Source: Minisyncoccota bacterium (GTDB lineage: Bacteria > Patescibacteriota > Minisyncoccia > Phycocordibacterales > UBA918). Taken from it: DNA of 64,000 nt. The first letter of the stretch is position 1. Each line of letters starts with the position of its first letter. A program made the position numbers and the translations under genes. The notes below the pieces were generated by a model. That model was given only the letters and a program-made list of their open reading frames with translations, was not told where the DNA came from and made no database searches. This document shows, in pieces, positions 1-61,894 of the stretch. Location of the stretch: positions 4,078 through 68,077 of the forward strand of contig JALHRC010000004.1 of the NCBI GenBank assembly GCA_022841645.1, in the 5' to 3' direction.

Positions 1-2
1 GG

Positions 3-98
3 GTGAGAAATGGGGTGGGACCCATTTCGCAAGACTCATTGAGAGTCTTTATGAGCTGGCGATATAAAGAATCCAATGAGTGGACAGAATCTGTAAGA
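3..98. repeat. Copy 1 of a ~95-nt structured repeat (cut by the window start): GTGAGAA + 7-bp hairpin + CGCAAGACTCATTGAGA ... TCCAATGAGTGGACAG ... CTGTAAGA
   Basis: Near-identical to 61513-61606. Internal 8-nt inverted repeat ACTCATTG/CAATGAGT. The 5' hairpin (AAATGGG/CCCATTT) occupies the same position as the GAAGTGAC/GTCACTTC hairpin in copy 2. Confidence 0.5.
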
Positions 99-260
99 TT
101 CGCGAGCACTTAGCGGATTTAAGCGAAGCGTAAAATCTGCTTAGTGACTCGTGTGGACAAGGCGTGCCTTAATACTAGCCGCGTCCAACGTTCTTATAAG
201 CGTAGCGAGTTAGCACCACAAGAGTATTTCCATTTTCATAGTCGTTTCACTCCTTGAAAA

Positions 261-695
261 TTGGTCAAAAAGCGGGACGATTCTGGGCTGGGTCGTAACA
301 ATGACTGCTATACTAACCTCATCATGCTCGACCACCTCACCCTCCGCGTTCCAAACATTGAAAAAACCATCACTTTTTACTCGGCCACCCTAGCCCCACT
401 TAGGTATACCCTCTCCTTCGATCAAACATTTGATGGTGTCCGCGTGGTTGGTTTTGGTAAGGATGGAAAAGTTGATACCTGGTTTACCACCGACACTCCT
501 GTAAGTGCACACTGCCATATTGCCTTTAAAGCAGACTCACCTGACGCCGTTGACACGTTTTACAAAGCTGCGCTAGCAGCCGGTGGCAAGGATAACGGTG
601 CACCTGGACTACGACCGGAATATCACGAGAGGTATTATGGTGCTTTTATTTTTGACCCCGACGGTCACAATATTGAAGCCGTGTACGGAAACTAG
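261..695 (+). CDS. VOC-family (glyoxalase/bleomycin-resistance fold) protein; the true start may be the internal Met near 324
   Basis: 144-aa ORF with a VOC-like beta-alpha-beta-beta-beta pattern (HLTLRVPNIEKTITFY ... GAFIFDPDGHNIEAV). Confidence 0.55.
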   Translation: MVKKRDDSGLGRNNDCYTNLIMLDHLTLRVPNIEKTITFYSATLAPLRYTLSFDQTFDGVRVVGFGKDGKVDTWFTTDTPVSAHCHIAFKADSPDAVDTFYKAALAAGGKDNGAPGLRPEYHERYYGAFIFDPDGHNIEAVYGN

Positions 696-2262: not shown

Positions 2263-4671
2263 TTAGGAGCGGGAAATCTCGTAATTGGTCAGCTCCGCCC
2301 AATTATTCCCCACCGCCGCTTCAACCCTTAGTGGCACGCCATAGGTCTCCCGGTCACGCAGTACCCCTTCCATAACTGCGACTAGGTGCGGGAGTTCAGC
2401 CGCCACAACGTCCTCCTTCACTTCAAATACTAATTCGTCGTGTACTTGAAGAAGCATCCGCACCACGTCTGTCTTGTTGTTTTTTTTGAGATAATCGTAC
2501 ACTTCGTTCATGGCAACACGCATGACATCGGCAGCCGTACCTTGGACCGGCGCATTGATTGCCATGCGTTCGGCACTGGCTCGAATGAAGGGCTGGCTGG
2601 AAGTAATGCCCGGAAACTGCCGGCGGCGACCAAACAACGTTTCGGTGTACCCATGTTTGCGCGCGTATTCCTTGGTCTCTTCAAGATACTCCGCCAGGCG
2701 CGTGAAGGTATTGAAGTAGGCATTGAGGAACTCTTGTGCTTCTTCGCGACTGGTCCCTTCGCCTAAGTTGCCCCGCAGTGCCACTACCCCCATACCATAG
2801 AGAATGCCAAAGTTGATCACCTTGGCCTTGCGGCGCATTTCCTTAGTAACCTCGGTGGCGTCCACGCCAAACACGCGAATGGCCACCCCGGTATGAACAT
2901 CCTCGCCGCGGCGGAAGATGTCGATGAGTTTCATATCGTGGGATAGAATGGCCGCAATCCGTAGCTCGATCTGCGAGTAGTCGATCGAGACGATGCGGTA
3001 GCCGGGCGCCGCCACAAAAGCCTGACGGATAGCGCGACTTTCAGTTGTACGAATGGGGATGTTCTGTAAGCCAGGATTTTGCGTGGCCATACGACCTGTT
3101 GCCGCCCCGGTTTGAATGAAGGTGGTATGAAGACGGCCATCGGGTGCGACAAAGCCGGGGAGGTTGTCGACGTAGGTAGAGACGAGCTTTTGGAGTTCGC
3201 GGTAGCGCAAAATCTGTTCGATGACCGGGTGTTCGCCCTTCAACTTTTCAAGCTCCGATTCCTTCGTCGAGCGCTGTCCACCGGCCGTCTTTTTTTGGTT
3301 TTTTGGTTTGAGACCAAGGGTATCAAACAGAATGTCGCCAAGCTGCTTAGGGGAATTGAGATTAAACACCACTCCCGCATGACCATAAATGGCGGTTTCG
3401 AGAGTTTCAAGTTCAGCATGCATAGTGACCGATAAGGTCTTTAGATAATCAGTGTCGAGGAGAATGCCATTCTCTTGCATGTGGTCAAGAACCGTCATTA
3501 ACGGTTCCTCAATATCGAGGAACAACTGCCATAACCCCACACTTTTAAGTCGCTCTTCTAAGAGCGCAATGATTTGTGACACATCCATGGTGTCGAGAAA
3601 CGCCCGACCGTATTCCATAATATCTTCGACTGAGGCGTTGGTGCGCTCACTTTCAAGGAGCCAAAGAAGGACGGCGGCGCGACGCACGAGTGTGGGACTA
3701 ATCTCACCCGCACTATGCCGCGCTGCCTCTGCCTCCATAACACCAAACAAAGTCTTCACTCTCCCGGTAAGGGAGCGGAACCCAAGCTCGGTAAAAAGTG
3801 CCAGTATAGCTGGTGGGTCGGCGTGGGTGCGCCAGGCAGTTTTTTCAAGCTCGAAGTTAATCGGCGCGTCGGTACGAATCGTCGCCAGCATTTTGGAAAA
3901 CCGCGCCTCTTCTTCTCCGTTTTTGAGGAGCTCGATAATGCGTGGCTTGATACCGGCCGCCAGAAAGGCTTCGTCACCCTTCTTTAATTTTTTATAAATA
4001 GTGTCAAGGTCGCCAAAATGCGTAAGGAGGTCGGTGGCAGTTTTCTCACCAATCCCGACAATACCAGGAATGTTGTCACTCGTGTCGCCACGCAGACCTT
4101 TGTAGTCGGGTACGTGTTTGGGCGGAAATCCAAAGCGTTCTTTAACGGCCACTTCATCATACAAAATAGTGTCCTTAATTCCCTTCTTGAGGGTATAAAC
4201 CGCCACCCGCTTACCGTCAACACACTGCAGTGTATCCATATCTCCCGACGCAATAATAACGCGGATTTCTTTTTGGGTGCGCAATTCGTGGGCGATGGTC
4301 CCAAGAGCGTCGTCGGCTTCAAAGCCCGGGTGTTCGTAGATAGGAATGCCGAAGCAAGCAAAAATAGCGCGCGATCGCTCAATCTGCGCAACCAGTCCAT
4401 CGTCGGTTTTCTCCCGTTTTCCTTTATAGGCCGCAAAGGCAGTGTGACGATAGGTGGGCTCGGGTAGGTCGTAACAGGCGGCGATATAGTCGGGCTTAAA
4501 TTCCTCGATGATGCGCAAGAGCATAGTTACTACACCATAGAGCGCCCCTGAAGGTTCGCCGGCCGGCGTCGTAAAGTCCGGAAGGGCGTGAAATGCCCGA
4601 TGTAAAATAGCGTGAGCATCTAGGAGCACTAGGGTCTTTTGGTCATTCCCTTTCCCGGCGGATTTTGCCAT
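2263..4671 (-). CDS. polA: DNA polymerase I (5'-3' exonuclease + polymerase domains)
   Basis: 802-aa ORF. N-terminal FEN/5'-nuclease motifs (LLDAHAILHRAFHA, GIPGI.GIGEKTA). Family A polymerase motifs (RRxAKxxNFGxxYG; VHDELVFE). Confidence 0.9.
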   Translation of the reverse strand: MAKSAGKGNDQKTLVLLDAHAILHRAFHALPDFTTPAGEPSGALYGVVTMLLRIIEEFKPDYIAACYDLPEPTYRHTAFAAYKGKREKTDDGLVAQIERSRAIFACFGIPIYEHPGFEADDALGTIAHELRTQKEIRVIIASGDMDTLQCVDGKRVAVYTLKKGIKDTILYDEVAVKERFGFPPKHVPDYKGLRGDTSDNIPGIVGIGEKTATDLLTHFGDLDTIYKKLKKGDEAFLAAGIKPRIIELLKNGEEEARFSKMLATIRTDAPINFELEKTAWRTHADPPAILALFTELGFRSLTGRVKTLFGVMEAEAARHSAGEISPTLVRRAAVLLWLLESERTNASVEDIMEYGRAFLDTMDVSQIIALLEERLKSVGLWQLFLDIEEPLMTVLDHMQENGILLDTDYLKTLSVTMHAELETLETAIYGHAGVVFNLNSPKQLGDILFDTLGLKPKNQKKTAGGQRSTKESELEKLKGEHPVIEQILRYRELQKLVSTYVDNLPGFVAPDGRLHTTFIQTGAATGRMATQNPGLQNIPIRTTESRAIRQAFVAAPGYRIVSIDYSQIELRIAAILSHDMKLIDIFRRGEDVHTGVAIRVFGVDATEVTKEMRRKAKVINFGILYGMGVVALRGNLGEGTSREEAQEFLNAYFNTFTRLAEYLEETKEYARKHGYTETLFGRRRQFPGITSSQPFIRASAERMAINAPVQGTAADVMRVAMNEVYDYLKKNNKTDVVRMLLQVHDELVFEVKEDVVAAELPHLVAVMEGVLRDRETYGVPLRVEAAVGNNWAELTNYEISRS

Positions 4672-58292: not shown

Positions 58293-58313
58293 GCACCCGC
58301 CAGGACTCGAACC
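58293..58313 (-). repeat. Perfect inverted copy of the 3'-terminal 21 nt of tRNA-Arg(TCG)
   Basis: GCACCCGCCAGGACTCGAACC is the reverse complement of tRNA positions 58225-58245. Upstream tRNA-like structure is absent. Confidence 0.7.
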
Positions 58314-58504
58314 CCTCCACCGGGACCCAACATGTAGCGAAAGCGTAGTGGTGGTGATGGAGGGGCGGGGTCGCGACAGCGAGCCGAAATGGAGCAAAGT
58401 GAACATTTTGGCCGCTGTGGTGACCGAGTATTTCCATAGCGAAGAAATATGGTTAGTAACTCGTGACCACTGCGTTCATGATTTTTTGCTACAATCCTTG
58501 CGTC

Positions 58505-58625: not shown

Positions 58626-58646
58626 GCTCCCACCAGGAATCGAACC
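58626..58646 (-). repeat. Perfect inverted copy of the 3'-terminal 21 nt of tRNA-Arg(CCG)
   Basis: GCTCCCACCAGGAATCGAACC is the reverse complement of tRNA positions 58555-58575. Confidence 0.7.
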
Positions 58647-58765
58647 GAGGCGCGGCGAAGCCCGCAGGCGAAATGAAATGGAGCCGAGGAACGCGCCGAG
58701 TGGGGGTCGAGCGAGTGCGGTAGTTTATGAGCGGAGCGAAGTAAACTACCCACGAGAGTGACCGG

Positions 58766-58783
58766 TTCCTGGTGGGAGCACCA
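58766..58783 (+). repeat. Direct partial copy of the tRNA-Arg(CCG) 3' end (TTCCTGGTGGGAGCA + CCA)
   Basis: 15-nt identity with the tRNA acceptor/T-stem 3' strand, about 190 bp downstream of the tRNA and just upstream of the HAD gene. Confidence 0.6.
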
Positions 58784-61118: not shown

Positions 61119-61123
61119 CGTTG

Positions 61124-61194
61124 CGGCCATGGTTAAGTGGTATAACATATCGTTGCCAACGATAGGTCGGGAGTTCGATTCTCCCTGGCCGCAC
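61124..61194 (+). tRNA. tRNA-Gly (anticodon GCC)
   Basis: Acceptor GCGGCCA/TGGCCGC, anticodon loop TTGCCAA, T-loop TTCGATT. 71 nt. Confidence 0.75.
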
Positions 61195-61241
61195 AAACGC
61201 GTTTAAATCCCTGCCCTGCGGCAGGGATTTAGCGTTTGTGA
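61195..61241 (+). terminator. Long imperfect hairpin immediately after tRNA-Gly
   Basis: CAAACGC-GTTTAAATCCCTGCC-CTGC-GGCAGGGATTTAG-CGTTTGTG. Confidence 0.5.
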
Positions 61242-61391
61242 ACCGCAGCGATGTTTCTGGCTTAACAAAAAGCCAGAAACTGCGAGGTGGGGCCGAGAAC
61301 ACTTAGTAGATTTGGAGTAAAACGAACAAATATACTTAGTGATTCGTGGCCAAGTACAAAAATGAGCGCCTCCGGGCGCCATTTTTGTTCG

Positions 61392-61437
61392 TGCGGCCAG
61401 AGCACTGCCTTTGCAGGCAGTGCGTGGAGAATCGAAC
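61392..61437 (-). repeat. Inverted copy of the tRNA-Gly 3'-terminal 21 nt, split by a 25-nt hairpin insertion (TGCGGCCAG / hairpin / GGAGAATCGAAC)
   Basis: Reverse complements match tRNA-Gly 61186-61194 and 61174-61185. Between them lies GCACTGCC-TTTGCA-GGCAGTGC. Confidence 0.55.
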
Positions 61438-61512
61438 GGCGGAGCGTTGCTAAACGCGCCTTTCCTAGCGCGTTTAGCCGCGAGCCGCGGCCGGCGTTCT
61501 TATGAGCGAAGT

Positions 61513-61606
61513 GTGAGAAGTGACTAAATGTCACTTCGCAAGACTCATTGAGAACTTTTGTGAGTTTACGAACAAAAGATCCAATGAGTGGACAGTTTCT
61601 GTAAGA
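61513..61606. repeat. Copy 2 of the ~95-nt structured repeat (see feature 3-98)
   Basis: GTGAGAA + GAAGTGAC-TAAAT-GTCACTTC + GCAAGACTCATTGAGA ... TCCAATGAGTGGACAG-TTT-CTGTAAGA. Confidence 0.5.
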
Positions 61607-61623
61607 AATTAGAAAAAGCGGGC

Positions 61624-61638
61624 CGATTCTCCCTGGCC
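61624..61638 (+). repeat. Direct partial copy of the tRNA-Gly 3' end (CGATTCTCCCTGGCC)
   Basis: 15-nt identity with tRNA-Gly 61178-61192, about 430 bp downstream of the tRNA. Confidence 0.55.
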
Positions 61639-61894
61639 ATATACAGAACAAGCACCCCTCCGGGCGCTTGTTCTGTGCCTAAGGGTAACTAGGGTAAGTT
61701 TGTCTGAGGAGGCCCTGAGCATGTTAAAATGGTAAAGACAGCTGTGGATAACTAAGTGAATAGGTGGATAAAGGACAACTGTCTTTTAAAACTATGGCTC
61801 AACATATAGAATCTTGCCCAGAGCTTTCGGTAAGTGCCGAGTCCAACGTGTTTGATTTTACTGTGCTTAGAAACTGCCACGTGGAACATTTCAC

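Follow-up and report, generated by a model that had tools for sequence, protein, structure and literature searches.

The window analysed here, a stretch of 64,000 nucleotides from a Minisyncoccota genome, holds two copies of the same ~96-nt structured element, at 1-100 and at 61511-61608, both on the plus strand. The element belongs to a family of non-coding cassettes of ~96-100 nt that extends over the Patescibacteria and had not been catalogued before. With the balance standing about even, we favor the reading that the unit is a phylum-wide non-autonomous mobile or recombining structured cassette and not a regulator of the VOC gene that follows copy 1. Mobility is proposed on the grounds of sharp bounds, filled and empty sites, both orientations, nesting and nearest relatives that are not syntenic. 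The original prediction had placed the two copies at 3-98 and 61513-61606; positions and strand were borne out and the limits refined to those given above. Copy 1 starts at the window edge, and the sequence 5' of it lies outside our view.

Several lines of evidence tie the two copies together. CGCAAGACTCATTGAGA and TCCAATGAGTGGACAG each occurred exactly twice in the 64 kb with up to 3 mismatches allowed, against chance means of 0.14 and 0.42, respectively, and a repeat finder also paired copy 1 with copy 2 (families D6 and D13). The covariance model R1, built from homologues in other genomes, scored copy 1 at 89.3 bits (E 1.5e-22) and copy 2 at 86.9 bits. Both copies fold into three hairpins, with z values against dinucleotide shuffles of -4.4 and -4.9. 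Since the opposite strand folds about equally well, folding energy alone cannot tell which strand is the folded one. With a third, degenerate relative (Table 1), there are three copies in the window, roughly one per 20-30 kb.

A covarying three-hairpin fold

The fold consists of a variable hairpin P1, a long hairpin P2 capped by GAGC-GAA-GCGAAA, and a short hairpin P3 of the form NNNC-UGUAA-GNNN. The consensus opens with G-N-GUGAG, followed by the variable 6-8-bp stem of P1, the loops of which are mostly UGGGA-like, GAAUACUUGGA or UAAAU. A linker (UU)CGCAAGA leads to P2. Its base is ACUCAUUG-A-G / C-CAAUGAGU, itself covarying among the copies that have diverged further, its middle stem varies, and its cap, UGA-[NN-GAA-NN]-GAAA, encloses a two-base-pair mini-hairpin that covaries as well. 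P3 is reached through UGGACAG. Unpaired or non-canonical positions are invariant in the blocks G-GUGAG, CGCAAGA, the GAGC-GAA-GCGAAA cap, GGACAG and the UGUAA loop. The loops UGGGA of P1 and UGUAA of P3 both fit UGNRA, which we take to be the T-loop pattern. GCGAAGC, at the apex of P2, is a famously stable DNA mini-hairpin; the same apex is found in module B, described below.

In the covariance-model alignment, paired cells amounted to 95.5%, versus 69.8% in shuffles, double (compensatory) changes were present at 29 of 29 modelled base pairs, and the covariation score was 0.576, versus 0.14 in shuffles and 0.04-0.11 in slid controls. This alignment is fitted to the model; two structure-naive checks run beside it both agreed. 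MAFFT followed by RNAalifold recovered P2 and P3 with many compensatory pairs, and 79 distinct P1 segments scored alone had a mean terminal stem of 6.0 bp versus 0.7 bp in shuffles. The NNNC/GNNN helix of P3 occurred with 30 different 5' strands and was fully paired in 55 of 61 distinct sequences. G-U pairs (69) outnumbered A-C mismatches (28), which indicates that the given strand is the folded one, be it in RNA or in one specific strand of the DNA.

The compensatory changes in the 5' hairpin, from which the original prediction started (AAAUGGG/CCCAUUU against AAGUGAC/GUCACUU), are thus real and general to the 79 distinct P1 sequences. Its third hairpin, GGACAG-NNN-CUGU, was mis-assigned: variants like CUCU-CGUAG-AGAG keep the NNNC/GNNN pairing and break GGACAG/CUGU. 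The conclusion that this is a selected RNA structure rather than a DNA repeat stood in part. A single-strand fold with covariation is indeed selected, but the alternative was a false choice, the unit being a dispersed, multi-copy, insertion-like repeat as well.

In many loci (e.g. L013, L025, L049, L089, L095 and L098), the 3' half of P3 and the bases after it spell GUAAGGAGG, which matches the Shine-Dalgarno sequence perfectly and pairs with CUCC of the 5' strand. No consistent start codon follows it, and it may be coincidental.

Distribution of the family

A scan with the pattern CGCAAGACTCATTG-N(25-55)-CAATGAGTGGACAG of species representatives, one genome per species, returned at least 118 loci with an exact match. 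Among the matches listed, nearly all stem from metagenome-assembled genomes (MAGs) of Patescibacteria, with labels including Kaiser-, Taylor-, Zambryski-, Nomura- and Roizmanbacteria, Paceibacteria, Minisyncoccia, Parcubacteria and many Third Party Annotation (TPA) records named Saccharibacteria; many genomes contributed several loci each. The two exceptions among them, a Chromatiaceae and an Azotimanducaceae record, are short contigs that may be mis-binned. A covariance model (A3 and R1) was built from 15 homologues and applied to the window plus 99 loci picked by the pattern scan (L numbers; 758 kb from 100 sources). It detected 137 units, with at least two units in 26 of the 100 sources. 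Further homologues with covariation in other genomes, for which the original prediction had proposed such a search, therefore exist (137 units, 29 of 29 pairs). All alignments are drawn from MAGs.

Rfam 15 gave no overlap with either copy at E values up to 10, and only four tRNAs reached threshold in the window, in line with the earlier statement that the motif is of no known riboswitch or housekeeping RNA family. As a positive control, the same search tool detected in L055 a real group I intron that interrupts the 23S rRNA gene. ARAGORN and RF00005 called no cloverleaf at the units; the tRNA likeness belongs to flanking fragments. The element had no match in GenBank phages, in near or distant search modes, nor in PLSDB plasmids, and its exact pattern had 0 matches in IMG/VR, so no vector is evident. 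The literature searched held no description of the motif.

Limits, filled and empty sites, and gene context

Upstream of GUGAG, conservation breaks off sharply at position -2 (G in 72 of 92); at the other end it does so directly after P3. Presence and absence of the unit could be compared at otherwise equivalent sites, and this for two different host sites within the window. The first is built from two hairpin modules, C (consensus CGGAGCNAUG, a hairpin with loop CUUYCCUA, and CGAGG) and B (consensus CGAGNNCACUUAG...CUUAGUGAYUCGUG with GAGCGNAGCGAA apex). C and B meet without a unit at 61292/61293, and the unit sits exactly between them in L026, L100 and L035. Module B lies directly 3' of copy 1, as it does 3' of units in L026, L100, L035, L099 and L030, and positions 1-155 of the window, unit followed by B, are presumably a filled site of this type too. 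The B module of the empty site is ~95% identical to that of the Kaiserbacteria locus L026, with which coding DNA is only ~70% identical. The second host site, backbone D (consensus AGCCGCG.CC..CGUUCUUAURAGCG.AGYG / UUAG ... AAAAAGCGGGMCGAUUC), holds copy 2 at 61511-61608 and has no unit at 177-213. Its 3' end at copy 2, CGATTCTCCCTGGCC, is a direct copy of the T-loop-to-acceptor segment of tRNA-Gly.

Further properties of the family are consistent with those of dispersed structured repeats of the REP, BIME, BOX or ERIC kind: the unit is multi-copy, intergenic, orientation-independent and non-coding, with presence or absence at equivalent sites. Units occur in the spacers of ribosomal-protein operons (L030, L099) and as tandem or inverted neighbors, including head-to-tail units in L031 and L083. 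They are nested in the apex of P2-like hairpins and, conversely, extra hairpins are nested in the apex of P2. One MAG holds four copies that are identical in the covariance-model alignment and ~95-98% identical over 150-260 nt including flanks. Contigs of several MAGs end exactly at or inside a unit (start of L058, L032 and L103; end of L073, L066, L048 and L115). Open reading frames (ORFs) running through units are artefacts.

As a separate observation, hairpin modules B and C recur in the window in variable combinations with the unit (Table 1).

Orientation relative to genes was random. The ratio was 51:48 with respect to the upstream ORF and 50:48 with respect to the downstream one, and units inside co-directional gene pairs were 28 times sense and 22 times antisense. 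All-versus-all clustering of 580 ORFs within 3 kb revealed no recurrent protein family near units. The largest real neighbor cluster comprised 7 of ~100 loci and was accounted for by synteny; the top cluster was discarded, as it consisted of spurious ORFs read through the unit and chained to TsaD. Neighbors encode ribosomal proteins L2, L3, L4 and L23, EF-G, release factors, aminoacyl-tRNA synthetases, FtsW and other housekeeping or translation proteins. The window itself has a chromosomal look, with PolA, housekeeping genes and four tRNAs. In coding DNA it shares 65-72% identity with MAG loci of Kaiserbacteria-like type, which makes a Patescibacteria genome the probable source. Between genomes at this level of coding identity, the unit is 82-89% identical.

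Insertion into duplicated tRNA and 5S rRNA sequences

For about a third of the units, a tRNA or rRNA gene is no more than 500-800 nt away. Among canonical units, 32 of 120 have a tRNA at a distance of up to 500 nt, and 23 of these 32 share its strand. Some 13 further units neighbor 5S or 16S genes in mixed orientation, 8 of 13 being antisense next to 5S genes. In L005, L037, L011 and L089 the unit is cleanly inserted after ...GGTAGAG in a partial duplicate of the 5' half of the adjacent intact tRNA gene, upstream of that gene; two nucleotides are lost (0-3 nt over these insertions). In L055, L018, L077, L033 and L059 it sits in a partial or tandem 5S rRNA duplicate just 3' of an intact, Rfam-confirmed 5S gene, and the single 5S duplicate of L059 holds one unit in each orientation. 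Junctions of the 5S insertions show microhomology to the unit's own GGNGAG start and a possible GNNAG repeat on both sides, which the tRNA insertions lack, having lost 2 nt instead. These arrangements suggest that spare copies of stable-RNA genes act as landing pads. Units are not generally found in tRNA-derived sequence: orphan T-loop motifs occurred near 8 of 137 units versus 5% at random positions, which limits tRNA-derived flanks to units beside tRNA genes.

Copy 2 itself lies among hairpins and tRNA fragments, as originally described: an inverted tRNA-Gly 3' end precedes it and a direct copy follows (Table 1). Pairing between the two can close a modelled ~250-nt branched domain that holds copy 2. 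For the mosaic at 61388-61648 a fold of -123 kcal/mol (z -8.9) was predicted, a thermodynamic prediction only.

Other observations concern the surroundings of stable-RNA genes. An intact 5S gene followed by a second partial or complete 5S full of inserted hairpin modules was seen in L059 (1-470), L055 (3384-3830), L018 (6290-6962) and L077 (6040-6401). In the loci studied, 23 of 78 tRNA genes were followed, at a distance of up to 150 nt, by an inverted copy of the ~20 nt at their own 3' end, versus 4 of 78 in an upstream control. The inverted copy, from T-loop to acceptor end, stands just past the terminator-like hairpin and is often split by an inserted hairpin; a direct copy often comes later. 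This pattern is independent of the unit. Palindrome extension, an att-like duplication and functional pairing are possible explanations. Between module B and the copy 2 mosaic, a bidirectional terminator-like hairpin was found at 61366-61379 (GCGCC-UCCG-GGCGC, flanked by an A-tract and a T-tract).

The degenerate relative in the window is enclosed by the inverted (58626-58646) and direct (58766-58781) copies of the 3' end of tRNA-Arg(ccg). It is one of several 'type-2' relatives, the others being L038 5265-5475, L053 4940-5080, L093 ~3950-4050 (minus strand) and L023 3960-4080. They have no P1 and no GUGAG or CGCAAG block; what they retain is P2, the linker GAUACUG and P3, the hairpin with the UGUAA loop. 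Their core lies between antisense and sense copies of the neighboring tRNA 3' end, the pairing of which could, as modelled, close a cloverleaf-like domain with a tRNA-like 3' tail.

Two features of L055 are of a different nature. At 2795-2912 an otherwise canonical tRNA gene (RF00005, 37.7 bits, encoded CCA) carries ~23 extra nt in the D-loop and ~23 in the anticodon loop. These are far too short for group I introns and may be small insertions in a possibly functional tRNA gene. At 1557-1832 lies the group I intron of the 23S rRNA gene (RF00028, 92.8 bits; Paceibacterota MAG), which fits the reported abundance of such introns in the phylum.

Relationships among the copies

Nearest relatives were determined for units from genomes with at least two copies (n = 93). 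For 21 of them the nearest relative was in the same genome, versus 1.9 expected by chance; some local duplication thus occurs. For the other 72 it was in another genome, at 85-100% identity. Median identity of units was 0.67 within and 0.71 between genomes. Only 1 of 84 inter-genome nearest-neighbor pairs shared a flanking gene family, no better than random pairs (1.2%). Retention of fixed orthologues was therefore rejected, the closest inter-genome relatives not being syntenic. Even at the orthologous 5S-VWA-FtsW locus, unit number and orientation differ between genomes. Taken together, the pattern suggests that several sub-lineages coexist and move or are exchanged, and does not fit fixed orthologous RNA genes.

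Mobility weighed against other explanations

If the unit is a mobile or recombining cassette, G-rich sites resembling GGNGAG would be the places into which it is copied. The agent would be an enzyme acting in trans from a gene elsewhere, or else recombination guided by microhomology or driven by transformation. Selection would then maintain the fold as the form recognised in propagation, or for a role in host transcripts such as stabilising, processing or protein binding. Several points weigh against this proposal. The 3 kb on either side of the units hold no gene for a transposase, integrase or reverse transcriptase, the unit ends (GUGAG... and ...UGUAAGNNN) carry no terminal inverted repeats such as those of a classical MITE, P1 and P3 being unrelated hairpins, and no clear target-site duplication was seen at insertions. 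Units close to tRNAs favor the tRNA strand. Unpaired nucleotides are near-invariant across very divergent lineages, which is unusual for purely selfish repeats, and conservation of the unit above that of coding DNA hints at a function as RNA. The identity of nearest neighbors, furthermore, relies on ~40 variable positions and could in part be convergence. An autonomous version, with an ORF between core halves, was absent from the loci sampled around units, a sampling that limits this search.

The main rival, doubtful though possible in our view, is a primarily functional structured RNA, a small RNA family or module, for example a protein- or tRNA-binding platform, with its scatter and insertions being secondary. 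It would be expressed from or beside operons of stable RNAs and released by processing from scaffolds that derive from tRNA or 5S. The strong covariation with invariant junction nucleotides, the conservation relative to coding DNA, the frequent proximity to tRNA and rRNA genes with the bias to the tRNA strand, and the UGGGA and UGUAA loops, with their presumed T-loop pattern, would all fit. So would the presence of several divergent paralogues per genome with no single homogeneous burst and, if the modelled helix forms, the enclosure of the type-2 P2-P3 core between a tRNA 3' end and its antisense copy. Random orientation even in co-directional operons speaks against a functional RNA, however, as do the antisense majority beside 5S genes and the 5S duplicate with one sense and one antisense unit. 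Copy 2 moreover lies behind a terminator-like hairpin, no sigma-70-like promoter was found upstream of it, and the nearest relatives are non-syntenic.

We consider it unlikely that the unit is a REP/RAYT-like or IS200/IS605-derived miniature. In that case an HUH (Y1) transposase, with a single gene elsewhere in each genome, would recognise the hairpins of the unit in single-stranded DNA. A non-autonomous element of this kind needs no linked gene, and the hairpin-rich, strand-specific structure with tolerated G-T pairing, the clean insertion beside a short G-rich motif with no obvious target duplication, nested units and inverted doublets, and the GCGAAGC apex of P2 and B, a stable DNA mini-hairpin, are reminiscent of it. 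Yet no Y1, TnpB, IscB or RAYT gene was present in the flanks searched, 3 kb around the ~137 units. P1 and P3 are dissimilar, unlike left-end and right-end hairpins of IS200/IS605, no orientation bias was seen with respect to gene direction, taken as a proxy for replication direction, and sequence conservation over a whole phylum is atypical of REPs.

A new mobile structured RNA specific to the candidate phyla radiation (CPR) is quite unlikely, even with its two versions taken jointly. It would be either a small ribozyme or an RNA-guided or RNA-templated colonist of stable-RNA genes, or a tRNA-elbow-binding module with two T-loop-like pentaloops, expressed from captured tRNA or 5S scaffolds. 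If true, either version would explain the phylum-wide invariance and the settling in duplicated tRNA and 5S sequences.

A mobile catalytic RNA, that is a small self-cleaving ribozyme or an intron-like element spreading by reverse splicing into stable RNAs and cDNA recombination, strikes us as very improbable. It would account for the compact, highly conserved three-helix core, for insertions in tRNA and 5S, the classic targets of reverse splicing, and for the head-to-tail units, and Patescibacteria are rich in group I introns (PMC13011429), with a real one in L055. But one of the two units in the 5S copy of L059 is inserted antisense, removal of the unit does not restore the host sequence (2-3 nt are missing), the host copies are pseudogene-like duplicates, and no ribozyme or intron model matched in Rfam 15 at E up to 10.

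A group I intron, tried as a candidate in its own right, was rejected: neither copy gave an RF00028 signal, both orientations coexist in one 5S copy, and the host is not restored.

Finally, there is next to no chance that the unit serves the VOC gene 3' of copy 1 as a riboswitch or cis-regulatory leader, a reading effectively refuted by context statistics. The original prediction correctly saw copy 1 in the 5' region of this Glyoxalase-domain ORF, the strand of which it shares, but the link is incidental: the end of copy 1 (100) and the likely ATG (301) are ~200 nt apart, separated by module B, a stretch related to neither and a tRNA-3'-like fragment, copy 2 precedes a gene unrelated to VOC, and the 137 units are randomly oriented with no recurring gene family.

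Coordinates of the features

Table 1. Copies of the unit, associated modules and tRNA-derived sequences in the window (empty cells: no entry)
Feature	Position	Strand	Description
Copy 1, whole unit	1-100	+	Covariance model R1, fold z, sequence
Copy 1, block G-GUGAG	1-7	+	
Copy 1, P1	8-27	+	AAAUGGG/CCCAUUU, loop GUGGGA
Copy 1, block CGCAAG	28-33	+	
Copy 1, P2	34-81	+	Base ACUCAUUG/CAAUGAGU, covarying middle stem, apex GAGCUGGCGAUA
Copy 1, block GGACAG	82-87	+	
Copy 1, P3	88-100	+	AAUC-UGUAA-GAUU
Module B	101-155	+	Long hairpin CGCGAGCACUUAG ... CUUAGUGACUCGUG, GCGAAGCG-type apex; alignments
Backbone D without unit	177-295	+	AGCCGCGUCCAACGUUCUUAUAAGCGUAGCGAG-UUAG 177-213; 53-nt unrelated insert; AAAAAGCGGGA 267-277; tRNA-3'-like tail CGAUUCUGGGCUGGGUCG 278-295
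Inverted tRNA 3' copy	58293-58313		
Module B	~58440-58470		
Inverted tRNA 3' copy	58626-58646		
Degenerate relative	58684-58779	+	P2-type hairpin GGUAGUUUAUGAGCGGAGCGAAGUAAACUACC, without canonical P1 or P3; R1 27 bits, E 1.7e-5
Direct tRNA 3' copy	58766-58781		
tRNA-Gly(GCC)	61123-61194	+	Mosaic with copy 2 adjoins
Terminator-like hairpin	61195-61239	+	
Module C'	61244-61292	+	Joined to module B
Module B	61293-61351	+	No unit between C' and B
Inverted tRNA-Gly 3' end	61391-61437		61391-61400 and 61426-61437, split by hairpin 61403-61422
Module C	61440-61484		Loop CUUUCCUA
Backbone D with copy 2	61483-61638	+	Left arm 61483-61512 AGCCGCGGCCGGCGUUCUUAUGAGCGAAGUG; unit; UUAG 61609-61612; AAAAAGCGGGC 61613-61623; CGATTCTCCCTGGCC 61624-61638
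Copy 2, whole unit	61511-61608	+	Covariance model R1, fold z, sequence
Copy 2, block GUGAG	61513-61517	+	
Copy 2, P1	61518-61536	+	AAGUGAC/GUCACUU
Copy 2, block CGCAAG	61537-61542	+	
Copy 2, P2	61543-61589	+	
Copy 2, block GGACAG	61590-61595	+	
Copy 2, P3	61596-61608	+	UUUC-UGUAA-GAAA
Direct tRNA 3' copy	61624-61638		

Comparison with known systems and significance

The unit shares with BOX of Streptococcus pneumoniae and BIME/REP of enterobacteria that it is dispersed, multi-copy, intergenic and protein-free, and that few hairpin modules (here A, the unit itself, B, C and D) occur in variable combinations, in either orientation, inside or between operons. It differs from them by its ~96-nt three-hairpin fold with invariant unpaired blocks, by its superphylum-wide instead of species- or genus-level occurrence, by its frequent location within duplicated tRNA or 5S pieces, and in that no RAYT-type partner was found near units. 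ERIC/IRU and Correia (NEMIS) elements are also structured repeats, of ~100-150 bp, transcribed within host mRNAs, and the host range of ERIC is fairly broad. They are, however, long imperfect palindromes with terminal inverted repeats, Correia having in addition a TA duplication, whereas the unit has neither a palindrome nor such repeats.

Miniatures of IS200/IS605 (PATEs) and omega/RE RNAs resemble the unit in their strand-specific hairpins and in inserting beside a short motif with no obvious target duplication, and non-autonomous PATE copies keep a conserved structured RNA scaffold, as the unit does. In contrast to IS200/IS605, no tnpA, tnpB or iscB is near any copy, the end hairpins are dissimilar, and no obvious guide segment adjoins the canonical unit. 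Nakagawa et al. 2026 (PMC13011429) described group I introns in Patescibacteria tRNAs, which exceed 200 nt, match RF00028, reside at anticodon-loop position 35/36 of functional tRNAs and are self-splicing; elements like the unit are not mentioned there. Host phylum, structured RNA and interruption of stable-RNA genes are common to both. The unit, however, has ~96 nt and no RF00028 match, sits in spare copies of genes, in both orientations, and its removal would not give back the host sequence. Riboswitches and other 5'-leader RNAs are likewise compact ~100-nt folds with covarying stems and invariant junctions, but the unit has no consistent position, strand or downstream gene family.

In conclusion, the unit resembles BOX, BIME/REP and ERIC in kind, and differs in architecture, in breadth of conservation and in its occupancy of tRNA and 5S duplicates. 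Patescibacteria, with their tiny genomes, account for a large part of the diversity of bacteria, and their RNA biology has hardly been studied. The covariance model of the unit is suited for addition to RNA family libraries, and the unit is a recurrent cause of contig breaks in CPR MAGs. The analysis also exposed a wider undescribed architecture around CPR tRNA genes, made up of inverted and direct copies of tRNA 3' ends. A ~96-nt fold that is near-invariant across the radiation must do or exploit something fundamental, which could be a conserved host enzyme, the competence or recombination system, or stable-RNA processing.

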